Made by a program: the position numbers and the translations under genes
NCBI GenBank assembly: GCA_040143965.1
Contig: JASJQH010006877.1
Span: forward strand, 57,533 to 77,532
Source of the DNA: Basidiobolus ranarum
Taxonomy: Eukaryota
Length of the DNA stretch: 20,000 nt
Direction of reading: 5' to 3'
Shown: positions 1,337 to 20,000 of the stretch, piece by piece
How positions within the stretch are numbered: position 1 is the stretch's first letter
Layout of the letters: every line of letters begins with the position of its first letter
Notes under the pieces: generated by a model
Told to the model about the DNA's origin: nothing
Database searches by the model: none
What the model saw: only the letters and a program-made list of their open reading frames with translations

Positions 1337-1413
1337 TTGAAGCTTAGTTATTTCTCATGGTGTATCTATCCTAAATTCTTGTCCCTTAATTTAATTCAAG
1401 GACAAGTTTCACA

Positions 1414-3729
1414 ATGAGCCAATCTCGAACTGAAGCTATCATCAACAGCGTACACAGACCTTCTCGCAAGGTTGAGTATCCTACAATCAACGGGAAAGGA
1501 ATTTATCCTTCCGAGTTTTACGGTCAAAATGTTCTTACTCTCAAGGCTCTTTCCAAAGCTTTACCTAAACCAATATTCGGTCAATTTCTCAAGCAAGTGA
1601 GAGGTCGTCAACATCTTGATAAAGTTACTGCTGACGCGGTTGCTCATGCTGCTCGCGTTTGGGCTATGGAGCGTGGTGCCACCCATTATTCTCATTGGTT
1701 CCAACCTCAGACTGGCACTACAGCGGAGAAGCACGATTCTTTCTTGACTTTGAAAACTGGCCCTGCTGATGAGGTAAATACATACGTAGTCAATTGTACT
1801 GATTTTCAACGACTAACAGTTCTGTTTTATTAGGTTTATGTTCTTGAAGCTCTGTCTGGTTCTCAACTTCTTCAATCTGAACCAGATGCTTCCAGCTTTC
1901 CTTCTGGTGGTATGAGAACTACCTTTGAAGCTCGTGGATACACTGTATGGGATACCACTAGTCCAATGTTCATTCAGCCTGGTCCTCATAATACTTTCGT
2001 ATTGTACATTCCTTCCGTTTTTATTTCCTACAACGGTGATGCGTTAGATGAGAAGACTGTTCTTCTTCGTTCATGTGAAGCTGTTTCTAAAGCTTCTAGC
2101 AGATTATTAAACATTTTACAACCGGTACCTGCTGGTGTTCCTCCTCTCGTTAAGCGTGTTCATACTACTCTGGGAACAGAACAGGAGTTTTTCCTCATTG
2201 ACCGCTCTCTTTACGCGCTTCGCCCTGATTTGAAAACTTGCGGTCGCACTTTGATTGGAAACCTTCCTCCCAAGCATCAACAAATGGAAGATCATTATTT
2301 CGGTAGGATGCCTACTCGTGTATTAGCTGCTATCAGCGAAGTAGAACTTGAGCTTACCAAACTTGGTATTCCGATTAAAACTCGTCATAATGAAGCTGCA
2401 CCCGCCCAATTCGAAGTTGCTCCTATTTTTGAGGAGGCTGTTGTCGCTGTAGACCATAATCTTGTAACTATGGAAGTTATTCACAAGGTTGCTCACAAGC
2501 ACAATTTAAAGGCTTTGTATCACGAGAAGCCATTCAAAGGTGTTAACGGCTCTGGAAAGCATTGTAATTGGGCTTTGTCCACTGATCGTGGTGAAAACCT
2601 TCTTGATCCTACTGTTAAACCAGAGACAAATTACCGTTTCTTGCTTTTCTTGCTTGCTATTCTTCATGGTGTTCACAAGCATGGTGGACTTCTTCGTGCA
2701 TCCATCGCAAGTGCAGCTAATGATCACCGTCTTGGTGCTGCTGAGGCTCCACCTGGTATCATCTCTGTTTTCCTTGGTGAACATCTCAACGAAGTACTCA
2801 ACTCTATTGAAGAATCTCGTCCTCTTAAGACATTTTCGCAACCCCATATCCAATCTATTAAGGTTGGTGGAACTGTCCTCGATGTGAAGGTTGCTTCTCT
2901 TCCCAATATCTCCCGTGATCTCACCGATCGTAATCGTACTTCTCCCTTCGCCTTCACTGGTAATAAATTTGAGTTCCGTGCAGTTGGATCCAAACAGTCT
3001 CCTGCCTTCCCTGTTACGGTTCTTAACGCCGCTATCGCTTCCGCTTTAGAGGATGTTACAAATGCTCTTTTACAACAAAAGGGAGATAAAGATTTCGTTA
3101 CTGATGCCGATAAGGTTGCTGTTATCAAACAATTCATTACATCTACCAAGCCCATTCGTTTTGAGGGTGACAACTATTCTGAAGCATGGGCTCAAGAGGC
3201 TGAGAAACGTGGTCTCCCTAATATCCGTGGCTCTGTGGAAGCTTTCAGTCAATTACGCCTGGATTCCCACAGAGACATGTTGATCAAGACTACCGGTATT
3301 TTCACCGAATCCGAATTAAATTCCAGATATCATATTCTCAACGAAAGATACTCAAAGGATGTCATCGTCGAGGCCAATACATTACGTACTATGGTTCAAC
3401 AGCAAGTATTCCCTGCTGCTTACGAATACAGAAGAGAACTAGCTACTTCTGCCGCAGCTTTAGCGGCTATTAATGTTTCTAACGCACCCGAAGTTACATT
3501 GCTGAATCGTTTGAGTCCTATTTTGACGGATCTTCAATCTAGTAATGAAAACCTCCTTAACGAAATTGAGAAGGTGATGGAATTGGAGCATGAGGAACAA
3601 GCTCAGGCTACATACAATATTATTGTTCCACTCGTAGAACGAGTTCGTGAACTAGCTGATCAGTTGGAAGATATTGTTGCTGACAAGTACTGGCCTTTAC
3701 CCAAGAACACCGAGTTGTTATTCTTCTAA
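1414..3729 (+). CDS. Glutamine synthetase type III (GSIII, GlnN-like), 751 aa; exons 1414-1773, 1834-3729
   Basis: Intron 1774-1833 (GTAAAT...GACTAAC...TAG) joins the two ORFs in frame and restores LLQSEPDASSFPSGGMRTTFEARGYTVWD. GSIII signatures: GATHYSHWFQP..GTTAEKHDSF, GTEQEFFL, RHNEAAPAQFE, HEKPFKGVNGSGKHCNW, HRLGAAEAPP, DRNRTSPFAFTGNKFEFRAVGS, C-terminal WPLP. Length is typical of GSIII. Confidence 0.95.
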
Positions 3730-5263: not shown

Positions 5264-5859
5264 GGCTATTGGCAATTAATATATCTCCATTAAAAGCCAA
5301 CGAAGGTTATTGAAGAGGTACAAGTCGACGCTCATTTCCTAGTACATTTCCCAGTATTCTATGGTAGCTGCAACCCAAATGCCCTACTGAAATTGCCCAC
5401 ATGTACTCGTTAAGCATCATGGATTATATGTATTGTTAGGCGGATAATTAATCTCCATATTATTTGCATGAGATTTATTGTATTGAAATAGATTCCGCAT
5501 TTTAGGAAAGCTATCTCGATTTAGAGTTTAATTCAGCCAAGCACCATATTTATATTATAGTAGTGACCTCCCTTTCCCTGCCAAGAATCGTGTGCTGCTT
5601 TCTCCTTTTCTTCTTGAACTGCAACTTGTTATAGTTTGACCTGTGCTTCTATTCTTAATTTTACTATATTGCTGTACGCTGATACCTCCTCCCAGTCCTT
5701 ATCTCCTCCATTCTAGATCTTTAAGGAGTCTTCAATTGCTGTATATAGAAACACCAACCTTGGTTAATGGTAAAATACACATTCGTTAATATCTGGTCAC
5801 TATAGTTCCCTTTCTGTTATAGACATTTGTATCACTATCCCTGCTTCTCCTAAATAGTC

Positions 5860-7478
5860 ATGGTGTTTAAGAAAAAATCAAAATCCTTGGGCACGCTAGA
5901 AGTTAGACCCTGCAAAGGTCGAGACTTGAGAGTAGTTCAAAAAATCGGAAAACAAGATCCTTTCCTTCAGTTTGAACTAGGAAATGGGCGTCAACGTACC
6001 AAAGCAGATAAGAACGGAGGACAAAAGCCAACCTGGAATGAGCGCCTCACTTTCGAAATAGTGGAAGGTGTACACAAAGTGGTGGTTAAATGTTTCGACC
6101 AAAACCTTAGAGAGCATGCTTTTATTGGCGAGGGAGAGATTGATTTCAGTACTGCAATCACATACTATCAACTCGACAGTAAGTGTTTATCTTTGTATTG
6201 CTCACCAAAACTTTGGGTGTCACTTTTTTATCTTTATTACCAAATACTCAGCAATACTTTTATCAATTAGATTGGTTTCAGTTGAAAGATAAGGGGGAAC
6301 CCGCTGGAGAGGTGTACCTAGAGTTTACATTTTTCCCTGTGGTAAGTTCCAAGCACTAATATACTTGATTAGTGAAAGTTCATTTATAGAGGGAAAAGAG
6401 AATACGAAGAGTTTATCATTACATAGTCATTATTCGACACTACTATAGATTACAGTTACTCTCCAAATACAATACTAATAAAATTCGTATTTTTCTTTGA
6501 AACGCCATCTTCACTTAGGATGGTCAAAAAAACCCACCACCCTTGCCATTTACACCTTCACCAATAGTAAGTAATGGTACACCGATGATCCCACTAAAAA
6601 CTCCCGCAACTGCCTCCCCTACAGTCAACTTAAGTATCCCGAAAGCACAGCCTTCGCCCAAGACGAGAAACTCGCCTAAAATCGTACCTAAAGCGGCCGC
6701 TCCTCCAACCAATAGTCCAAAACACAATGCATCGGAACGTAATGGCACACAAGCTCCCTCAGCGAACACCAATAAAGGAGATCACGATGGAGTTGGTTCA
6801 TATAATGGAGTGGGCCCTGCGGGAAAGCACCTGCCCATACTACCACCATCAAGTAGATCCAACACTCCATCCCAAAATGGTTCACCTCAATCTTCTCGCC
6901 ATGGTTTGGATAACTCCGATCATGCCGAACAAGGGAATTTAAGTTCCCATTTCTCTCAGGTAGTTAAATCACATAATTCTTGTTCAATGTCGTCGTATAT
7001 ACTGATGCATTTTGCATACGAAGGTCCCCTCCTATTACCAACAATACCCCTATCCAATATCTCCGGTAAGTATAAATCAGTATAATGACCAATTGTGATG
7101 CTCACGTATTAATGAACCATTTCTCAGGAGCAAGGCATGTACCTACCGGGACCTTATTATCCTCCACCTGATCCATATGCCTATGGTTATCCCATGATAC
7201 CTGGCACACCTTTCCCACCAGTGTGTCCGGACCCAGCAGCCTATGGAGGATACCCTATGCATGAAGGCTATATGTCCCCATTCCCAGATATGCATTTACA
7301 TGATCCTGGTATGTATCCAGACCGTTACCCTATGCCAGAAGAATTTGCACCACCGATCGGAATGTATTACGATGAATATGGGGTTCCTTTACCAATGCCA
7401 CCTATGAACTTCATGCCCTATCCAGCCATGGTGCCTCCTGGGCGCTATGTCCATCCTGACGAAGAGAAGCAAAAATAG
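5860..7478 (+). CDS. fic1: Fic1/Inn1-like cytokinesis (ingression) protein: N-terminal C2 domain plus Pro-rich tail, about 407 aa; exons 5860-6178, 6271-6341, 6519-6959, 7024-7065, 7128-7478
   Basis: C2 domain LGTLEV...GKQDPF...RTKADKNGGQKPTWNE.L.F...FIGE...WFQLK...AGEVYLEFTFFP matches the fungal Inn1/Fic1 C2 type. It is followed by PxxP-rich and P/Y/M/G-rich low-complexity regions. All four introns are GT-AG with consistent phase. Orthology is less certain than the domain call. Confidence 0.75.
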
Positions 7479-7799
7479 GCACTCTTCAGCTAGACCTACT
7501 CATACATTACTTATTTTACTGAAATTATGATTTACTACTTTAAAAATCATATATTTATTTTGAAAATAACCTCGAATTCATATCAAAATTGCTCGATAAA
7601 TTTCTTTCATATCCTATTTGAATTATTATGATATATACTCAGTTCATCAAGTATTGTTTAGTTTATAATAGTAATAGAAATCAAGGAACCAAAAAAAAGG
7701 GCTCCGAATCAATGAAAAAAAAACTCCGGAATTATTTAAAAAGGGATTATTGTGAGAATCTGATCCTTCTCGTTTGATTTCCATACTTGAACTTTGAAA

Positions 7800-8957
7800 A
7801 TGGTAAGTCCATATCATCCATTGTTTAGTGCATCCATCTTTTTTTCTGATATTGACATGAAATTCTCTATTACAAGGCTCCCTCCAAGAAATCTACCAAG
7901 AAAGTTGCCCCTGCTCCTTATTCTAAGGGCAAGCAAACCACCAAGGTTGCCAAGAACCCATTGTTCGAAAAAGCCCCCAAGAACTTCGGTATTGGTGCCG
8001 ATATTCAGCCTAAGCGTGATTTATCTCGCTATGTCAAGTGGCCTGAGTATGTTCGTCTCCAACGTCAAAGAAAGGTTCTCAAGCTTCGCCTCAAGGTCCC
8101 CCCTACCCTCAACCAATTTACAAAGGTTTTGGACCGCAACACTGGTATGGTTATTCGAATTTATTCGAAGTAGGCAGCCTCGTTGTTTCTTATTGAAGTG
8201 TCCTGAATTGCTGACGTTAAAAGTGTTTACACTTTTTGTCATGCAAACAGATCATCTAATTAGACTCATCGGACTGCCAATGATCCCCTTAGGTGTTAGA
8301 GTCTGATGGTGCTGAGAATACTTGAATGTTTCAGTGAGTGGACATTCGAGTGTTTTTCAGTCATAGGACTTCTAATTACCAATGACCTCCATACCATTTT
8401 TTATGTGTTGTATGTTATTGACACTCTTTTCTCTTGTAGCTACTCAATTGTTCAAATTCTTGAATAAGTATCGTCCTGAAACCAAGCAAGAAAAGAAGAC
8501 TCGTCTCACTGAAACCGCCCAAGCTACCGTCGAAGGTACCAAGGTTGAGACCAAGAAGCCTACTGTTGTCAAGTACGGTATCAACCATATTACCGCTTTG
8601 GTTGAATCCAAGAAGGCTCAACTCGTCGTCATCGCTGATGATGTCGATCCTATCGAGATTGTTCTTTGGTTACCCGCCCTCTGCCGCAAGATGGGTATTC
8701 CTTATTGCATTGTCAAGGGTAAGGCTCGTCTTGGTACTGTTGTTCACAAGAAAACTGCCACTGCTCTTGCCATCACTGATTTGGAAGAGGGTGATAAGGC
8801 TGATCTTGCCAAACTAGTAGACACCGTTAAGGCTGCTTACAACGATAAATACGATGAACATCGTAAACAATGGGGTGGTGGTATCATGGGTTTCAAGTCT
8901 CAAGCTGCCACTCTTAAAAAGCAAAAGGCCCTTAACAAAAGTTCTGGTAAAGCCTAG
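7800..8957 (+). CDS. RPL7A: 60S ribosomal protein eL8 (L7a; yeast Rpl8), 262 aa; exons 7800-7802 (ATG only), 7877-8144, 8440-8957
   Basis: [55 protein letters not shown]7Ae domain [60 protein letters not shown]. Strong codon bias; an ATG-only first exon is typical of ribosomal protein genes. Confidence 0.98.
8143..8396 (+). promoter_or_regulatory. Structured intronic RNA element in eL8 intron 2 (candidate splicing-autoregulatory element with poison exon 8251-8333)
   Basis: Hand-derived helices: 8143-8155/8381-8396 (covers the 5' splice site), 8192-8205/8364-8376, hairpins 8208-8246, 8267-8308 (K-turn-like) and 8312-8360 (about 20 bp, GTGAGT in loop). The intron is 295 nt against 55-92 nt for most others here. 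Confidence 0.6.
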
Positions 8958-8977
8958 ATATTATGTGTGTGCACCAT

Positions 8978-9153: not shown

Positions 9154-10128
9154 CTAGTCAGAATGGAATCGGTTATGTAAATGATAGGACGAATTGGAGG
9201 AGTTTCGATGTGACCACATGGTTTTCCAATCGCTTGGTTGAGGCTCATTACCAGCATTCTCTGGCCCTACACATTCTTTATTAGTTATTTCATTACCCTT
9301 TACTGTGATATGATAGCTTCTTAACGTAATGGGAGGTTTCAAGTCAAAATTCTTAGCCTCCAAAATATTCATCAAGTCAGAAACCCGGTTAGCACTTTCG
9401 GGCCAAATATTATCTGGAAAGCAACATAATAACTGTCTTCTGATCTGAAGAAAGCGATTGAGGTACTCGTGTTCGGTGTCATGTCTGCCTGTAAGTTTCA
9501 TGATACTTCGAAGACTAATACCATCATCATTTTCATATCCATGTTGCAATGCAGTATCATAAAAAATCAATTTACCAAGGTTCGAGTTGATACCAGCTTT
9601 TCCAGCCAAGTAAATTGCTGGTCGAAGAATATTCTGATCAGCTACCTCCACTTGAACTTTACGAAATTTCTCATCACAAGCTGCTTTTTTCCATGCATCA
9701 GTAAATCCATATAAATCCGCATTTTTTGGCTCTGAATGACAACGTGTTGTATTGGAAAATTCGTTCAAAGTTGGTAAAAATTTGGCGAATAACTTGGAGT
9801 GTTCTCCTTTTACTTTGAAATATTCCTGGATTACTGTTAATGCTTCTCCTGCTGATGTAGTAAACCCAACAAAACCACAGGTGTAGCCCCTTTTATCGTC
9901 AAGATCTCGACACGATTGATAGTGAAAATTGGTTCTTGAATGTTCGAAAACATTGGATATCACCATGATGGTCTTCTTGACATCCGGTGATAGTGAAGAT
10001 GCAGCGTGAGTAATACCCTTTGAAGGAAGGCACAACTTCATAGCGGCCGTAAAGTCGAACTCAGCGCAGTGTGACGTTGAACTGACATATGGGCCTTTAC
10101 AGTAGGGAAAACTCGGTCTAGTGCTCAT
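9154..10128 (-). CDS. Chitosanase, glycoside hydrolase family 46, 324 aa, no intron in the ORF
   Basis: ISNVFEHS...Y..CRDLDDKRGYTCGFVGFTT..GEAL.VIQEY aligns by eye with Streptomyces N174 GH46 (VSSAENSS...IEDIGDGRGYTGGIIGF), catalytic Glu and Asp present. Also AWKKAA.D.KFR..Q, YDTALQHG and E.EYL..FL..RR. The start codon is uncertain. Confidence 0.88.
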   Translation of the reverse strand: MSTRPSFPYCKGPYVSSTSHCAEFDFTAAMKLCLPSKGITHAASSLSPDVKKTIMVISNVFEHSRTNFHYQSCRDLDDKRGYTCGFVGFTTSAGEALTVIQEYFKVKGEHSKLFAKFLPTLNEFSNTTRCHSEPKNADLYGFTDAWKKAACDEKFRKVQVEVADQNILRPAIYLAGKAGINSNLGKLIFYDTALQHGYENDDGISLRSIMKLTGRHDTEHEYLNRFLQIRRQLLCCFPDNIWPESANRVSDLMNILEAKNFDLKPPITLRSYHITVKGNEITNKECVGPENAGNEPQPSDWKTMWSHRNSSNSSYHLHNRFHSD

Positions 10129-10917
10129 AATTATTTTTCTCTATTCGGGGACAAAGACGAAGTTTATAAAGTCACCAATTCCCTAACAATTGATGACTGA
10201 TGAGATAAGTAATATAGATATTTCAGGTAGGAAGCAAAAGAGTTACCATCAAAATATCAAATTCCGTAATAACAAGTGTCAATAGTCTTTAAATCTATGA
10301 GTATTTGTTGGTCATGCTTGTTTCGTATAGCACCGCCCACTTGTTTCCTTTGCCTCTTATCGCTGTGGCTTACTAATGCTAAGAGTATAACTACTGATTA
10401 TTGAGAAACAAAACCAACCAAAGATGATAGAATTTCCAATGCTAGCTTCAATTAGCTCAGTTTCATAAAGATTTGTGATCAGGGGGGATCGATATACAAT
10501 TAACTAGTTTAGTCAAAGGCGATATCAAAGCTTGAAGCATTTCATCATTTTGACTATCAAGGTTTAGCTTAGTGTTCATGCGATTCTGGCGCCCCAGAAG
10601 TCAACTTGAGACAGCGGCGGTTGTTTCAAATAGCGTACTGTCCACAGCGATCGTACATATTAGTTTTACGTTCTCTCTCAAAGGTTATTACGGTTGAGTG
10701 TAACATTGTTTTAGAACGAACAATCCATGTTGCGATCTAATAAATATGATAAAAAACCAGACAGATGAAGATTTATTTCTGTAAAAGACTTCATGTAGAA
10801 CTAAATCATCAATACCTAAGAAACCATTGATTTGAGGAAAGAAGCCTGCTTCGGTAATTACAAAAACGACGGGGTATTTGAGATATATATTCACATAATA
10901 AATGGTAGTGCATATAC

Positions 10918-11711
10918 TCAATCTTCATCCTCTTCGTCGTCATCATCATCATTTTTGTTCTTTCCTTTATCTTGCTTTGCGCTCTTACCAACACCGATGC
11001 TAAGGTCTACGTTCTTTAGGAGTGAACCCTTGCCATTTATAGTGATGGTAGGTCGTTTCTCGAAAATCGTGACATCGTCCCAACCTTTTTCTGGATACTC
11101 CGGAATTCTTGGATAGCTGGGTAATTGAGCAATTGCTAACTTTGGTCCAGTGATTGAACCACCAGATTTACCTTTGATCGTAACGTCGGCGCAGTTCATA
11201 TAGAAGTCACGATTACCCTCTTTACTTATCCATGTCCAGGCAATTATGGCCTCTCCAGAAGGTGCATTTTTCGGAAGTGGAACATCAAAGTTCAACCCGG
11301 ACTCTAAGCAGTTGCGAAGAACTGTTTTTAGAACTACCCAAGTTTTACTATCATAAGAAATTACGAATTGGCATGTTCCACCTTTGTGGGGAGTTCCCCC
11401 AGCGATTTTGATTCTGATATTTGAGCCGGAAGAGTAACTCGCCACACTGGGCCCCTTGGATGCACCTTGGCAAGGGAATGGTCTCTAAAATACATATCGG
11501 ATTAATATCTTATTTGTAACAGAAGGTTGAATAGATTCTATACCTTGCTACTAAGCGGAGACATAATATCATAGTCGACATCCCCTTTCCTTTCGTAGTA
11601 GGAATTATGAGAGGATCTTCTAGGCGCAGGCTCTACCATCTCCATATGCCCAACAACGAATTGAACCAGAATTAACCCCGAAAAAATGATACAAAGTAAT
11701 TTGAATAGCAT
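10918..11711 (-). CDS. Secreted lytic polysaccharide monooxygenase, AA11 family, 244 aa; exons 11711-11544, 11484-10918
   Basis: Upstream exon missed by the ORF track: MLFKLLCIIFSGLILVQFVVG|HMEMVEPAPR, a signal peptide placing His at +1. A 59-nt intron (11543-11485, GTATAG...TTTTAG) follows, then FPCQG, HKGGTCQFVISYD (second His) and AWTWI..GNRDFYMNCAD (axial Tyr). Lys-rich then acidic tail. Confidence 0.9.
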
Positions 11712-12707
11712 GACTGATGTTGAAAGTCTTTGTGGGAGCGGTGTTTATAAATCTTTTGAAGAAACCCTTTCATCACCTAGCTTGTAATCTAGTGAGTCCT
11801 ATGCTTAGATTGCATATTTATGCGTGAAATGAATGTAATATCTTATAGTAGAGGGAGGTTCACTAATCGCTTCTCCATATTTTTCTCGCATCATCCCTGA
11901 GATAGAGGAACCTCAAGCCAAACCATCGCTTTGTTGTATAATTTCGTTTCATTTCTATTCTAAAAAGATACATTAGGAAGCATAAATGGGTTTCCTTTGG
12001 ATCTCTTTAGCAACGCAGCTACTCCTTTTCTTTACATATTAAGGGCCTGATAACTACACACACACATATGTATATGTTTACAATAACATGCTACTAAAAC
12101 CATTTGATTCTAAATTAGCCTTTATCTCACTTAGAGATCTTGATACGATTATCACTCTCAATAACGGCAGACTCGTGGAAGACAGTTATGCATCAAGAAT
12201 ACTAAATATCACCCACGATGTAGGTAGAGTCAATGCTCATATTCGTCTTTAGAAAATATGAAGATCAAATTTAAATGGACACACCTCATGTTTGCTTCTG
12301 CTGATACCTACATAAGTCTAGCTCGTGTTTGTAACCCCTTAATAAAATTTGATACCACTAGATACATTAAGTAGTGTTATATGCGAAATATCAATACTGC
12401 TTACAACATATGTTACTCATCATAGTAGCTAATTACTATATTGGCCTCGTTAATGTGTTTCCAATTAACCAATATTTTTTTATCAACTCAGTCTGTCAAA
12501 ACTAAAGTATACTATCCAACAAACATATACTAAAATCTTAGTCCTAGACTCCCCGTTGGTACAATAGTGTTCATATCATTTTCCTCATTAAACTTCTGTA
12601 TGCTGATAGATCGTATTATGTTTATCAACTTCATTTATGGATTGTAAATAATATAAAATTTATTTTAAATTTAATATCCTGAATTTTTTAGCTGACTATC
12701 TGTAAAC

Positions 12708-15151
12708 ATGGCCGAACAGAGGCTATATGCAGAGTTAGAGGAGTGTCAGATTGAGTTATCTTGTGTAGAACAAGAGTTGGAAATACTCCAGATTAGAAAA
12801 GAGGAACTTAATGAACGTGTTTCCCTTCTACAACGTGAGATCTCTACTTTAGTGATACAAGATAGTGAAGAAGAACTTATCGTTAGAGAGGAACCTTTGG
12901 AAGAAACGAATATAGAAAGATGGTTTGCCGATTTCCCTTGGTCAACTAAAGCTAATAATATAAGGGATAAGGTGTTTCACATAAAATCTTTTCGTTTAAA
13001 TCAATTGGGTATCATTAATGCTACAAGTGCGAATACTGATGTGTTTGTTCTCATGCCTACTGGTGGAGGTATATTATTTTCATAGAATTTTTACTCTTCC
13101 TAAATATCAGTGTGCTAAATGTTACTTAAATATTCGTATATTAAAGGGAAGTCTTTAACTTTTCAAATCCCTGGTTTATTGGTGGAGGGTTTAACCTTGG
13201 TTATTAGTCCTTTAATATCTTTAATTCATGACCAGATCATGCACCTCAAAAACTTGGGAATCTATGCTGCTTGTCTTACAGCGAAAACGCCCAAAGAACA
13301 AGCGAAAGCCATCATGGCCTCTATGCTGAGCTGTGCCCAGGATGAAAAAGAGGGCACTCAACCACCACTAAAATTTCTGTAAGTAAATATAGGTAAATAA
13401 TATAGAGTTTTATGAACTTAAAAAACCTTCTACTATTTAGTTATGTAACTCCCGAGAAAATCGCCAAAAGTAAAATGTTTGTGAACCAACTTGAGAAACT
13501 TGCTCAGGTAAAAGAACCCATAATTTTCTCAAAATTCGTAGGGGAATTATTTCATTTATTCTTTATATTTTAGCGTGGTTTACTTTTAAGAATAGTCGTC
13601 GATGAAGCTCATTGTTGTAGCGTGTACGGTCATGACTTTAGAACTGACTACGCTAAACTCGGATTGTTACGTAAAGTAATTCCAAAAGTACCTATAATAG
13701 CTGTTACAGCTACTGCAACCGCAGAAATAATCCAAGATGTGAAGAATATACTAGGCTTATCTTCTAAATGTGTCTTATTTCGTTCGCCCGTTGATCGACC
13801 AAATCTTGATTACGAAGTACTTCGTAAGGTTTGTTAATGTAAAAAATGCACAATTCCGATCTAGCATATAACTCTAACCTGTCGTCCATCTAGCCTTCGG
13901 ATAAAAATGAAGTACTCCAGATGATATGTCAAACCATAGGCAAATTCAATGGAGGATGTGGTATTATCTATTGTTTTTCAAAGAAGGAATCCTCAGAATT
14001 GGCCTCTGATTTAATTCAGCAAAAAATTCGAGCTGCGGCCTATCACGCGGATATGGATGAAGAACATAGAAACAGAGTACATATGAGATGGGTGAAAGGT
14101 TCTGTTCAAGGTAATGCTCCTGAGCTTTTAATCAGATTGTTGAACTGCCATTTAACTCTTCCAAGTTATTGTCGCCACCATCGCCTTTGGTTTAGGAATC
14201 TCTCATCCTCACGTACGATTTGTAAAGTATCATTTCACTACAATGAACATGGAGTATTTCAACGAGCTAATCTTTCTAGTGACTTAGGTTATTCACCATT
14301 CAATTCCTAAATCGATGGAGTCTTATTATCAGGAGAGTGGTCGCGCCGGTAGAGATAGTGAGCCAGCAAGTTGCATCCTTCTGTATCGAGTACAAGATGT
14401 ATTCCGACAATCAACCATGGTGTTCAACGAACAATCGGGACAACACAACCTTTATCGATTTGTAGAGTATTGTCAAAATATAGATACCTGCCGACATGTC
14501 TCCATCGCACTTCATTTTGGAGATTCTACACTTAAAAATAGTGAGTGTAATCAACGATGTGATGTTTGCAATCAAAAAGCACTCGGTAAAATCCCCCAAC
14601 AAAAAGATGTTACGGATATCGCTCTCGCCATAATCAATATCTTACTAAAGCTAAGGCAGGAAGGATCTTCTGAGGAGAAGGTCACGTTTTTAAAAGTTTT
14701 GGATTTAGTTCGTGGAGTCGGTATTTCAAAATACCCTACTTTGAAAAACTGGGCCGATAACCCAAAGATATCTATTCGAGCCAGTAAATCTCAAGATGCG
14801 TTTACAAAAGAAAATATAGAAGATGCTACTGTAAAATTACTACTAGACGGCTATTTAAAGGAAATCATGCATTTCACGGCATATTCGACTATTTCGTATT
14901 TAACTGTGAATGTGTCAAGAGCTCGTGGATTTCTTGCTCACTACAACCCCTCTCCAGAAAAGCAATCATCTCGACCAAAATTCTACATTTATCAGATAGA
15001 AGACTGTGGCCACTCAACTGAACCAACACAGGCAAGCACTTCGTCACAAGCTAAGAAGAAACCCAAAGATAAAGACTCCAGGAAAAGGAAGATCGAAATT
15101 GATTTAGATACTCTTGACGAAACCACGGATCCAGAAGTCATTATTTTGTAA
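12708..15151 (+). CDS. RECQL: RECQ1 (RECQL)-type ATP-dependent DNA helicase, about 683 aa; exons 12708-13068, 13147-13378, 13441-13507, 13574-13828, 13894-14110, 14166-14221, 14288-15151
   Basis: Spliced product has MPTGGGKS, SPLISL, YVTPEKIAKSKMF, VDEAHCCS..GHDFR, TATAT, GIIYC, YHA, ATIAFGLGI, YYQESGRAGRD, Zn-binding CR...C...CDVC, and the winged-helix hairpin FTAYSTISYL. It has an N-terminal coiled coil and no HRDC domain. Confidence 0.92.
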
Positions 15152-16694
15152 AGGAGACATTAGTCTGTAGAAGAAACACCATGTCTCCAATGTTAGATGG
15201 TTATTAAGTTACTATATTAAATAGGTGTCTCTATCACGAAACACCATTGAATGATAACGCTTAGTGAATGTTCAATACACCACATATAACACAGAAATGC
15301 ATATTCCACAATAATTCCAATGCATATACGCTACAACCAATGGAATATTAAGATCTGCTCTACCATGCAGAACAATGACCGCTTAGGTTAAGAAGCAATC
15401 ACATCATATATTGTAGCGTTCTTCCTCGGAACCTTAGCATGTCTTTTGCCTATTACCCGATAACCTGAAGTTTTTAATTCTTTCCAATTGGTTATTCGTC
15501 AATAATTCCTGTATAAGCCATATATATCAAATTACGTCATGAATGAAACCAAATTGCTGATATGAATATGATAATATCCCCAAAATGGAACGGAGGGAAC
15601 TAAAAGGGAATATGAACTTCTCTTTCAGCTCAGTATCTAGTCGATCATCCCTTGGACGAGATGTTCTTGCTAGTAGAAGATCTTGGAATTGCTCACTACA
15701 AGGGGTGGATCAGGCCTTGTACTTACGAGATCCGCTCAATGTTACCCAGGAAAAAAATGTAACGGTAAATCAACTGATTCCGTGCATTAGCTGAGAAAGG
15801 GGCCGATCATATCTGGATAGATTTAGCGTGGGCTTAGAGTGTTTCTCTAGGGCTAGCTGCTACTCTTGCACTGTTCCTAACCTCTTTTGTCCCAGCCCAT
15901 CCTATGTCATTGCCGAAATACGCTATCACTAGCAGGTTCGTATTTGTGATATTGAGCCAATAGCTTGTACATTGCCATATTTGGCTATAATAGGCTTAAA
16001 GGTAATCAGCCGTTCAAGAGACGTAAATCAAAGTCGGCCTCCAAATCTTGGCAAGCTGGATGGACGGGTTGGTTGGAGGGACTGGTTGGTATTATCGGTA
16101 TATGACAGAAAAAAGGTGCGGAATTTATAAGACCGCGTTATTTCGCATGAGTCTGTCATACATTAATCAGTCCATTCATTTTTCCTGGTGAAACCTGAAA
16201 TTGTCAGAACAATCAAGTGGGTATTCAGCCCTGATGGGTAGGTGAGTCTAACATATGATGATAAATTCGGCGCATTGATTGATTTGTTATTGATTTGTTC
16301 ACGTTCTTTTCCATCAACGTTACTAATGCCAAGTGTATACAAATTAGTTAGTAGTCTTCTTAGAATTATCCCTAATAAGGAAATCCGTAATTCTACCACA
16401 TATGGTTCTCCACTCAGCAGCCTCAATTGTATAAATAGCTCAAACATTAGAATAAGCATATTCTACAGTAGATATCTTTAGAATATTGATATAGAGCGAT
16501 ATTAAATTTTCTTTCTAGTGCTAAGCCAAGTATTCAAGACCCCTTTAGCCTAGTTAAGATATTATTATTCGTAAGAGCCCAACTTTTACAGTTCATACTC
16601 CTTTCATATCTTCTATCATATTTTCTAAACTCACTCTTGAACTTTACGGTCTCTCGATACCTTCACAGAACCTCTCTTTAATATTTGTTAAGAG

Positions 16695-19600
16695 ATGGGT
16701 AAGATTAGTTTTGGTGGGCGAAAATTCCTACCTTCTCAACGAGAAAAAGCCAAGAAAAGGAGAGTTGAAAAATCCCTCCTACGCTCCCCTTCACGCCATC
16801 GACGAAGTGGAGAGACTCTGCAAGTATATGTAAATATTTTACTACCACCTAATGCGTTGAATAGACACGGCTTCCCTAAGAAACAATACCCGAGTAATCG
16901 CATTCGCACTTCCAAATATACAATATTCAACTTTTTACCTAAAAATCTGTTTGAGCAATTCCGTCGCGTAGCCAATATGTACTTCTTATTTATGGCTATC
17001 TTACAGTTTTTACCTTATGTTGGAGTCAGTAGTCCTTTGTTTTCAGTAATGCCATTGATAACAGTAATTGCTATTACCTCTATCAAAGATGGCATGGAGG
17101 ACTACAAGCGACATAGGATGGATCTCAAATACAATAGCTCCAAGACACAGCTCCTAAGGAACTGGACAAATACGAATCACCCACTTCACGAACCGACTAT
17201 TTGGCAGAGAATCAGTTTTTCAATTTCGGATTTTGTGACAGCTCCACTTTACAAGTACAAGCTATTTGGATTCGTTGAGGACACTCCTCGTAGCGGAGTA
17301 AAAGATGTGACATTTCAAGAGTCAAATCCAGATGTAGCAGAGTTCCGAGAGGCATTGTGGCAAGACATTCGGGTGGGAGATATTGTTTACCTGAAAAACA
17401 ACGAAACATGCCCAGCGGATCTAGTGATTCTTTCCTCTGGCGAGTCAGAGGGTGAATGTTTTATTGAAACCAAAGAACTCGACGGAGAAACTAACCTTAA
17501 AACTAGACTGTCCATAGATGAAACCCTTCATCTTCAAACCCCCGCTGACTTTGCAAATACCAGATTCTATATTGATTCCGATGTGGCCACCTCCAATCTC
17601 CACTCTTATCAAGCCACCATGCATATTTATCAGAACGATGAGTCCGACAAAGATTTAAACCCACTTGGCTCAAGAAAAAGGCCTTCCGCTGTGCCGATTA
17701 GTATTAGTAATACGCTATTGCGAGGTCATGTCATTAGAAACACTAGCTTTGTGATTGGAGTTGCCATTTTTACTGGTGGTGATACTAAAATATTGTTGAA
17801 TTCCGGAGCAACTCCTTCAAAAAGAAGCAAGATCGAAAAGACCATGAATCGCCAGGTACCTTATTTTCATTGACTCGATTGGCAATTCATCGGAGTTTTA
17901 ATAGAGGTTTTCATTTTAGGTTATAGTGAATTTTGTCATTCTGTTAGTACTGTGCCTGGTCTGTGCTTTTGCCAACGGTATTATTGAAGCGCGACAACTG
18001 AATTCCTTCGATGAACCCAACCCTGACTCTCCATTTACGCTTGGGTTTTTTACATTCTGGTAAATACCCTTCTTTCACTAAAAATATCCAGCCAGTATAC
18101 TGATACTCGTATTTAGGTCTAGTTTGATTATATTTCAAAATATTATTCCGATATCGCTCTATGTCAGTGTGGAGTTTGTCAAGACTTGGCAGGTGAGTAT
18201 CAGATGTGTTTCGTCTCTAGTGATGTTGACACTGACTTTATCTTCTCTTACCACTAGGCTTTCTTCATTTTCAATGACCTTAATATGTACCATGAAGCTA
18301 CTCAGGCATCATGTGTGCCCAAATCGGTTAGTTGCTTTTGTGTAAACTATACAGTTGAATTACAATCTCTTACACTACTTCTCTGCAGTGGAATCTATCT
18401 GATGATTTAGGACAGATTGAGTACATCTTCTCGGATAAAACTGGTACTCTAACCCGTAACATAATGGAATTTCGTAAATGTACGATAAATGGGAAAATGT
18501 ATGGAAACATACCTGGTATGGAAACCGATGCTGCTAAAGGAGCTCGAGAACGTCAAGGACTCGGACGTGAGACTATACAAACCACTTCATACGGTCACAA
18601 TCAAATATTTCAACAGTTTGTAAAGGAGATGAAGAGCGTATACGATTCTAAATATGCCTGCCTTAATCCTGAAAAGCTTGCTTTCATTGATCCTCAAGTA
18701 TTTCGAGATCTACGTGTACTAAAGGAGAGTCAGGTCATTGTTCCTGATGAGGTTGAACAAGCGGAAAGAATTCGAGATTTCTTCAGTTTGTTGGCTGTCT
18801 GTCATACGGTAGTCATTGAAAAACCTGACGAGATAATAGCTGGTCAACCACCGTTTGCTTATCGTGCTGAGTCACCTGACGAGAGTGCTTTGGTATCTGC
18901 AGCCAGAGACCTGGGATTTTCGTTTTTGGGTAGAGCAAAGAATGTCATGACTCTGGATGTCCTCGGTGAAGAGATGGATTTCGAATTGCTTCACATTTTG
19001 GAGTTTAATAGTACCCGAAAGAGAATGTCAGTGATTGTACGGCGTCCGGCTCCATGGAATGATTTAGTTATATTGACCAAAGGTGCAGATAATATCATTC
19101 TAGAGAGACTTGCTGAAGGTCAAGATCGCTTGGTTGGTATGACTGCTCAGCACATTGATCAATTTTCCAACGACGGTTAGTAGATTCAGCATTCTTTCTT
19201 CATCATCATAGAACATTGTTAATCATATTCTCTTGTTTAGGCCTGCGTACTCTGTGTCTTGCCTATCGTCCCTTGTCAGAGGAGTTTTATCAGCAATGGG
19301 TGGAGGATTTACAGCAGGCATCAACATCACTTGATAATCGCGATGCTGAGGTGGAGAAATGCTATGAAAGAATTGAATCGGAATTGGTGCTGATTGGTGC
19401 CACAGCCATCGAGGACAAGCTTCAAGAAAATGCACCCGAGTGTATATTGGCTTTGCGTCAAGCAGGAATAAAAATGTGGGTTTTAACTGGAGACAAGATG
19501 CAAACCGCAATTAACATCGGGTTTGCTTGCAATTTGCTAACAAATGACATGGAATTATGGACCATCAAGGGTGAAGACAAGGAAAGTTCGATCAGTGATT

Positions 19601-20000
19601 TTTTCGATGTTGTATCCAGTATTCGTGGGGAAAAAGACAACAGCCATCTTCGACGTACCTCTTATTTCGAATCTCTTCCACCACCCCGACGCTCCCTCAA
19701 TATGAAACGTTCCAATAAGATCCATGCACTAGTGATCGAAGGGAGCGCGCTGAAGTATATCTTGGAGGATACGGAATGTAGAACGCAACTTTTGGAAATT
19801 GCTCCATTGTGCCGTTCGGTGATATGTTGTCGCGTCAGTCCCTTGCAGAAAGCTCAAATCGTTCACATGGTCAAGAAAGGTAGAAAGGCTGTATGTTTAG
19901 CTATTGGTGATGGAGCCAATGCTGTAAGCATGATCCAGGCCGCCGACGTTGGAGTAGAACTCGCAGTTGAAGAAGGTCTACAAGCTGCCGTGGATGCGGA
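16695..20000 (+). CDS. P4-type ATPase phospholipid flippase (Dnf/Drs2 family), 3'-partial; exons 16695-17855, 17920-18059, 18117-18192, 18258-18326, 18389-19175, 19241->20000
   Basis: [58 protein letters not shown] (phospho-Asp), [57 protein letters not shown]. Confidence 0.96.

Follow-up and report, generated by a model that had tools for sequence, protein, structure and literature searches.

A folded second intron in an eL8 gene of Basidiobolus ranarum as a possible structural gate between two donor sites

The window analysed here, a stretch of 20,000 nucleotides from contig JASJQH010006877.1 of Basidiobolus ranarum, carries on its + strand a gene for the ribosomal protein eL8, and the second intron of this gene (intron 2) is the subject of the present work. 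Read from the sequence and translated, the gene comprises three exons, the first of which consists of the ATG only (Table 1), and the spliced product of 262 residues is letter-for-letter identical to P0121, a protein publicly named 60S ribosomal protein L8. The L7Ae domain (PF01248) in exon 3, the alignment to the orthologues P0002 and P0003, in which the junction between exons 2 and 3 is free of gaps (tblastn), and the identity with P0121 together confirm that the host gene encodes eL8, as the original prediction had proposed. Because the spliced product is P0121, the productive mRNA lacks all of 8145-8439. Over exon 3, the nearest named proteins among the matches listed in a protein search were eL8 proteins from Basidiobolus (85–86% identity), followed, likewise among the matches listed, by proteins from chytrids, zoopagomycetes and mucoromycetes (66–75% identity); given this ranking of relatives, the earlier description of the host as an early-diverging fungus is correct. 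At least one eL8 paralogue is found in the same named species (P0123, with 229 of 262 residues identical to the window protein), and a sister species has three listed eL8 proteins. The Basidiobolus eL8 paralogues encountered were P0121, P0123, P0004, P0002, P0003 and P0122, of which at least two belong to one named species and three to a second.

At 295 nt, intron 2 exceeds by a factor of four to five the length of six introns of the window that were read by eye (60, 62, 62, 63, 65 and 74 nt), a set in which only eL8 introns were checked by homology. Joining of open reading frames was tried for automatic intron detection and proved too ambiguous, and the lengths were taken from six junctions read by eye and from intron 1 of eL8. 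The minimum free energy (MFE) predicted for intron 2 was −86.2 kcal/mol, compared to −64.2 ± 4.5 kcal/mol for shuffled sequences (z = −4.87), with none of 200 shuffles being as stable, and a second shuffler gave a very similar value (z = −4.76). The predicted fold consists of a mini hairpin and two long hairpins, here termed A and B, all three of which are enclosed by a helix that closes the domain. Hairpins A and B kept mean pair probabilities of 0.86–0.93 when folded in the intron alone, in a 495-nt context and in the whole pre-mRNA. With the three hairpins subtracted, 84 nt of the intron remain, and the unpaired linkers from the donor to the branch site total 72 nt.

The two long hairpins behaved differently when the strands were folded separately. 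Hairpin A was equally stable on both, with −32.9 kcal/mol on the + strand (z = −4.35) and −34.3 kcal/mol on the − strand (z = −5.37), and is uninformative on selection for a sense RNA. Hairpin B was strongly asymmetric, reaching −36.5 kcal/mol on the + strand (z = −5.7 to −6.0) as compared to −18.3 kcal/mol on the − strand. When 3984 windows of 90 nt covering the 20 kb in both orientations were compared, the one on hairpin B was the most stable (−36.7 kcal/mol, with −30.0 kcal/mol for the next unrelated window), also after correction for GC content (residual of −21.9 compared to −12.9 for the next unrelated window). In the predicted structure, 7 of the 38 pairs of hairpin B are G-U, and there is no A-C mismatch. 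As the symmetric decay of a palindrome should leave G-U and A-C alike, this asymmetry suggests that the sense RNA has been under selection, and speaks against a DNA palindrome. No further copy of hairpin A or B, and no repeat or transposon related to them, was found within the 20-kb window. A tandem duplication giving rise to A and B was considered and rejected, since alignment scores as high were reached by 57 of 500 shuffles when the whole hairpins were aligned and by 64 of 1000 when the 3′ arms were. The heptamer CCAATGA occurs directly 3′ of both hairpins (8277-8283 and 8379-8385), a repeat expected by chance in 295 nt.

The helix that closes the domain has 8 bp and joins the last two bases of exon 2 and the entire authentic donor to a downstream strand, CCAUACCA, that is complementary to them and may be regarded as an anti-donor. 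The pairing probability of this helix was 0.87–1.0 in three contexts containing exon sequence and 0.80–0.90 for the six donor pairs in the intron alone, and the duplex energy was −10.8 kcal/mol. When the interior of the intron was shuffled, a perfect 8-nt complement covering the donor arose in 89 of 20,000 sequences (0.45%), with 276 and 718 sequences giving complements of 7 and 6 nt, respectively, and none of nine other candidate (unverified) donors in the window had a complement of at least 6 nt within the next 300 nt. These features bear on the explanation that the locus has no function, the hairpins being decaying inverted-repeat insertions and the combination of donor helix and loop donor a coincidence. 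Such an origin would agree with the equal stability of hairpin A on both strands, as for an inverted repeat at the DNA level, with the post hoc nature of the significance tests on helix and loop, and with the ease by which donor-like hexamers arise inside introns by chance. It is at odds with hairpin B, whose stability on the sense strand is double that on the opposite strand and which holds seven G-U pairs and no A-C where neutral decay would give both, with the missing further hairpin copies in the 20 kb, and with the rarity of the 8-nt donor complement among the shuffles; we consider it improbable.

Within this fold lie the splice signals on which the original prediction was built. That prediction described an 83-nt poison cassette exon (8251-8333) between two introns of 106 nt, through which eL8 would exert feedback on its own splicing. 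Its description of the sequence was accurate: GCTGAC, the T5 tract, CAG and GTGAGT were all read on the + strand at the positions proposed, and the 83-nt segment and the two flanking 106-nt parts have the correct lengths. Translation likewise bore out the reading frames, with inclusion of the segment leading to a premature TGA and use of the internal donor alone leading to a TAG, which is met by full intron retention as well. In the cassette form (TGA 8304-8306) as well as in the internal-donor or retained form (TAG 8171-8173), the stop lies upstream of a later exon junction. The internal donor was further claimed to fit U1 small nuclear RNA better than the real one. Judged against the 5′ end of U1, this is true only of intron positions +1 to +6, and the real site is better on the exon side, where it has a G at −1.

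The presence of the motifs is by itself weak evidence, no more than expected by chance. Under lenient rules, in which a full set was defined as YTRAY located 8–50 nt before YAG, followed by an 'exon' of 30–200 nt and then GTRAGT, a complete combination of branch site, acceptor and donor appeared in 516 of 5000 shuffled versions of intron 2 in which dinucleotide composition was preserved. The same set was found in 25 of 395 tiles of 295 nt on the + strand of the window and in 6 of 395 on the − strand, and within intron 2 the donor GTGAGT can be combined with any of four different YAGs. The hexamer GTGAGT occurs seven times on the gene-rich + strand of the window and twice on the − strand. A nested (twin) intron or recursive splicing was also considered and was rejected, as excision of 8145-8250 recreates no donor at the junction.

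The accessibility of the individual signals differed widely in the predicted structure. Opening of the authentic donor would cost 10.2 kcal/mol, as compared to 2.3–3.8 kcal/mol for the internal donor, which is located in the apical loop of hairpin B. The internal branch-like GCUGAC and the internal acceptor region would require 10.7 and 13.5 kcal/mol, respectively, and the authentic region from branch site to acceptor 4.6 kcal/mol. For eight of the nine internal YAGs, the unpaired probability of the G was at most 0.09, and the G of the ninth is the first base of GUGAGU. Only two of the 234 windows of 5 nt in the closed domain were fully open, one being GUGAG and the other the linker between the hairpins. 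On the basis of these opening costs and pairings, the weak authentic donor and all internal acceptors appear masked, while the strong internal donor is displayed.

For the cassette exon this arrangement is unfavourable. All of its signals are present and correctly placed, its donor motif is of the kind common on the gene-rich strand, GCTGAC resembles by eye the CTRAC-like branch sites of other introns in the window, and rpl-7A is regulated in this way in nematodes (PMC4937301). The branch-like site and the acceptor are nevertheless buried inside hairpin A, paired with a probability of about 0.96 or more, and the exon would span from the 3′ arm of hairpin A to the loop of hairpin B. The 13 nt preceding the CAG (GUCAUGCAAACAG) contain no pyrimidine run adjoining the AG, a complete signal set was found in about 10% of the shuffles, and three other YAGs are equally eligible. 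As a cassette needs both the buried acceptor and the buried branch site, the predicted fold counts against it, and we regard this model as very unlikely. The fold instead favours a scenario that was secondary in the original prediction, in which the donor at 8334 would be joined to the normal acceptor and 8145-8333 would be kept in the message.

Table 1. Positions of the exons, introns, predicted structures and splice signals of the eL8 gene, numbered within the 20-kb window.
Feature	Positions	Strand	Basis or predicted property
eL8 exon 1, ATG only	7800..7802	+	ATG/GTAAGT read; spliced product identical to P0121
eL8 intron 1, 74 nt, unstructured (internal control)	7803..7876	+	Fold z = +0.36
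eL8 exon 2	7877..8144	+	tblastn of P0002 and P0003, residues 2-92, onto 7877-8146
eL8 intron 2, 295 nt, phase 1	8145..8439	+	GTATGG...TTGAC...TAG
eL8 exon 3, L7Ae domain and stop codon	8440..8957	+	Pfam PF01248, E = 4.7e-25; tblastn
Closing helix, 5′ strand UG/GUAUGG, covering the whole authentic donor	8143..8150	+	Pairs with 8389-8396
Real donor GTATGG	8145 (start)	+	Sequence read
Mini hairpin, two TTCGAA palindromes	8154..8169	+	MFE structure
In-frame stop TAG if the 5′ part of the intron is kept (internal donor or retention)	8171..8173	+	Translation
Hairpin A, 39 bp, small internal loops, enclosing GCUGAC and CAG	8173..8278	+	Mean pair probability 0.92-0.93
Branch-like GCTGAC of the proposed cassette exon	8210..8215	+	Unpaired probability <=0.04; opening cost 10.7 kcal/mol
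T5 tract	8233..8237	+	Sequence read
Internal acceptor CAG, proposed cassette exon	8248..8250	+	Unpaired probability <=0.01; opening 8240-8250 costs 13.5 kcal/mol
Hairpin B, 38 bp, nearly perfect, 7 G-U pairs	8292..8380	+	Mean pair probability 0.86
In-frame stop TGA if the 83-nt segment is included	8304..8306	+	Translation
Internal consensus donor GTGAGT, apical loop of hairpin B	8334..8339	+	GUGAG unpaired probability 0.95-1.0; opening cost 2.3-3.8 kcal/mol
Closing helix, 3′ strand CCAUACCA (anti-donor)	8389..8396	+	25 nt upstream of the branch A in TTGAC
Authentic branch site TTGAC (probable), 18 nt upstream of the acceptor	8418..8422	+	Consensus only; opening 8415-8439 costs 4.6 kcal/mol
Real acceptor TAG	8437..8439	+	Sequence read

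The reading that we tentatively favour is that intron 2 constitutes a folded cis-acting domain gating the choice between two donors, with alternatives that contain stops. Where U1 wins the authentic donor, all 295 nt would be excised and eL8 would be made. If the closing helix were formed or stabilised, it would mask the authentic donor, and either the donor at 8334 would be spliced to the acceptor at 8439 or the intron would be retained. In both outcomes the stop at 8171-8173 would be met far upstream of the 3′ end of the transcript, which should then be directed to nonsense-mediated decay (NMD). The analysis itself establishes the gene model, the motifs and a predicted fold with unusual statistics, and from there we infer the fold in vivo, the use of the donor at 8334, the ensuing decay, and control by eL8 or another factor. 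The unproductive splicing put forward in the original prediction thereby stays possible and gains some support, given a non-random sense-strand fold built around both donors, while the cassette anatomy proposed for it (8251-8333) is not supported. That eL8 would regulate itself through this intron we infer purely by analogy.

A constitutive architecture is nearly as likely as gated donor choice, although we would still call it doubtful. The hairpins would then serve to compact an over-long intron until its effective length is workable and to hide cryptic acceptors, with the intron always excised whole and the loop GUGAGU unused. The 84 nt remaining without the hairpins are close to the 60–74 nt of the six introns read by eye, and every internal acceptor is predicted to be paired. 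Zipper stems, in which pairing draws the donor and the branch site together as the eL8 fold would, are common in yeast ribosomal protein introns, such donor-to-branch shortening stems being described for 32 of 88 of them, and the eL8 linker sum of 72 nt falls within the reported range of 42–85 nt (PMC12350175). Unlike the published stems, which lie at least 10 nt from the donor, the 8-bp helix of the eL8 intron already begins at −2, within exon 2, and takes in the donor, which places it outside the zipper-stem definition given in that source (PMC12350175). Since it covers the donor, the closing helix would compete with U1 and would be of no help to it. A fold selected to hide cryptic sites should furthermore not leave the sole strong cryptic donor in one of only two open pentamers.

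The intron was also compared to known classes of RNA, as hairpin B, with or without hairpin A, could be an intron-hosted RNA that is processed or bound by protein, either a substrate of Dicer or RNase III, resembling a microRNA or marking unspliced RNA for degradation, or a member of the 'rpl7-l8-s3' motif. Hairpin B has the appearance of such a substrate, as its near-perfect stem of 38 bp includes G-U wobbles, its loop is small and it is specific to the sense strand, and its sole Rfam similarities were to the microRNA precursor models mir-249 (21.6 bits, E = 0.087) and mir-237 (17.9 bits). Both fall well short of the respective gathering scores (70 and 80 bits) and reflect hairpin shape only. 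No Rfam family reached its gathering score and no tRNA was found in the whole 20-kb window, no recognisable aptamer was found in intron 2 with Rfam, and no family of small nucleolar RNAs, H/ACA included, matched the intron at E up to 10. A search of 8145-8439 for a C/D box pair (RUGAUGA and CUGA, 45–260 nt apart) gave none, even with two mismatches allowed in the C box, and inspection by eye for H/ACA features revealed no ANANNA in the hinge 8279-8291, no ACA after hairpin B and no large internal loop there. In yeast, RNase III cuts the unspliced RPS22B and RPL18A transcripts, as reviewed in PMC8047918. The rpl7-l8-s3 motif of Li and Breaker (2017) comprises two hairpins in fungal L7, L8 and S3 introns with a conserved purine-rich P2 region, and hairpins A and B, lying as they do in an intron of L8 (eL8), match its outline; the comparison was made to the outline description only, and the resemblance is one of outline, with no Rfam model matched (PMC5640933). 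As an intron-hosted RNA would also leave the donor-masking helix unexplained, we judge this possibility to be unlikely, though somewhat less so than an absence of function.

Several points weigh against gated donor choice and against eL8 as the regulator. All structures described here are thermodynamic predictions, and the tests of the helix and of the loop position were devised after the fold was known. An internal GTRAGT was present in 1061 of 5000 dinucleotide-preserving intron shuffles (21%). The two strands of the closing helix lie 245 nt apart, and U1 could therefore bind the donor co-transcriptionally before the anti-donor is made. In the fungal intron of the Neurospora thiamine pyrophosphate (TPP) riboswitch, long-range pairing near the donor likewise decides the 5′ splice site; this pairing lies beside the site and raised its use and did not block it, and the system is controlled by a ligand and raises the use of a nearby donor, whereas the eL8 pairing covers the donor (PMC3597705). 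When metagenomes were scanned with exon 3, 80 loci were retrieved with a best identity of 69%, both exons were present in 79 of them, and an intron at the exon 2/3 site was absent from all 79. Of the 120 matches listed in the protein search, 20 were shorter than 225 residues, and among these 20 intron-derived residues at the exon 2/3 junction were carried by none except the protein of the window itself. The usual target of proteins of the L7Ae family is the kink-turn (k-turn), and a search of 7760-8960 for its pattern (C stem, 3-nt bulge, tandem G.A/A.G pairs and non-canonical (NC) stem) gave a single match, which lies in exon 3 (8604/8793) and thus outside the intron; because intron 2 holds no canonical k-turn, a direct eL8 sensor is unsupported. 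The two CCAAUGA copies (8277-8283 and 8379-8385) resemble the bulged strand of a U4-type k-turn but were discarded, having by eye no GA partner and no NC stem.

Splicing feedback on ribosomal protein genes is known in yeast, nematodes and humans. One of the closest cases, from the same protein family, is C. elegans rpl-7A, which encodes eL8 and undergoes unproductive splicing with feedback: its stop-containing mRNA accumulates when NMD is off, and its productive fraction follows gene dosage (PMC4937301, PMC8047918). Unproductive splicing of nematode eL8 and of human L7A has also been reviewed (PMC8047918). The alternative introns of the nematode gene are exceptionally conserved between species, and the RNA element and mechanism of the nematode are left undefined in the available text of the two sources (PMC4937301, PMC8047918). 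Another close case is yeast RPL22B, which similarly has a long stem-loop in a ribosomal protein intron and an internal alternative donor leading to a stop-containing transcript (PMC4838235). Binding by Rpl22, inhibition of splicing and sensitivity to NMD were experimentally shown for RPL22B, whereas the Basidiobolus intron is known from sequence alone, and the arrangement predicted for the eL8 intron, with the authentic donor paired and the alternative donor in a hairpin loop, is not described for RPL22B in the available part of that source (PMC4838235). In both cases the gene has paralogues, for Basidiobolus eL8 at least P0123; by analogy, paralogy is the setting of such feedback in yeast, and intron regulation specific to one paralogue, as in yeast RPL22A/B, may be conceivable for Basidiobolus eL8.

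A third comparison concerns RPL30. Like eL8, the L30 protein is a member of the L7Ae/L30e superfamily (PF01248), and its binding site is a kink-turn; no k-turn was found in the eL8 intron, where the donor would be masked by an ordinary 8-bp Watson-Crick helix formed with a remote strand. In S. cerevisiae RPL30 and RPS14B, feedback relies on a ribosomal protein that binds the pre-mRNA where it is structured around the 5′ splice site (PMC4838235), and in the eL8 intron, too, the structure would involve the donor region. In the literature searches, no description of an autoregulatory intron element of eL8 or of ribosomal protein splicing in Basidiobolus was found, and RPL8 is absent from the main text of the yeast feedback-screen paper.

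The remainder of the window contains several other genes. On the − strand, convergent with the 3′ end of eL8 and with about 200 nt between the stops, an open frame of 328 codons (9154-10140) matches the chitosanase family GH46 (PF01374, E = 4.2e-36). GH46 is a mostly bacterial family, and the gene was possibly transferred. Also on the − strand, the open frame at 10921-11484 gave weak, sub-cutoff matches to lytic polysaccharide monooxygenases (AA9 with 22.2 bits and a cutoff of 27.8; LPMO_10 with 18.8 bits and a cutoff of 23). The other genes lie on the + strand. A type III glutamine synthetase (1390-3729; GSIII_N, Gln-synt_C and a C-terminal domain) is split by an apparent intron of 60 nt (1774-1833) with the branch site ACTAAC, and the upstream neighbour of eL8 (5854-7478) is a C2-domain gene (PF00168) with a long, low-complexity C-terminal part rich in proline and tyrosine and a probable intron of 62 nt (7066-7127). 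Downstream are a RecQ-type helicase (12696-15151; Helicase_C, RecQ_Zn_bind) and a P4-type phospholipid flippase (16692-19998; PhoLip_ATPase_N, Cation_ATPase), both with short introns, the latter continuing past the window end.

Should gated donor choice not hold, the locus would stand as a warning that splice-like motifs in long introns are common by chance, being found in about 10–20% of shuffles. A bolder version of this reading, which we put forward as rather unlikely, is that one eL8 paralogue is under a compact intronic switch in which a helix masks the donor, a hairpin loop shows a decoy, and an occupant of the fold diverts transcripts to decay. This occupant would be eL8 itself or another sensor of ribosome assembly. 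If true, the intron would be the first structurally defined feedback element for eL8, and it would show that one donor can be masked and the other displayed by plain helices without a k-turn. Gated donor choice, should the fold work as proposed, would provide a small and easily mutated model for the selection between two donors by RNA structure, and would indicate that such circuits are present in a deep fungal lineage.

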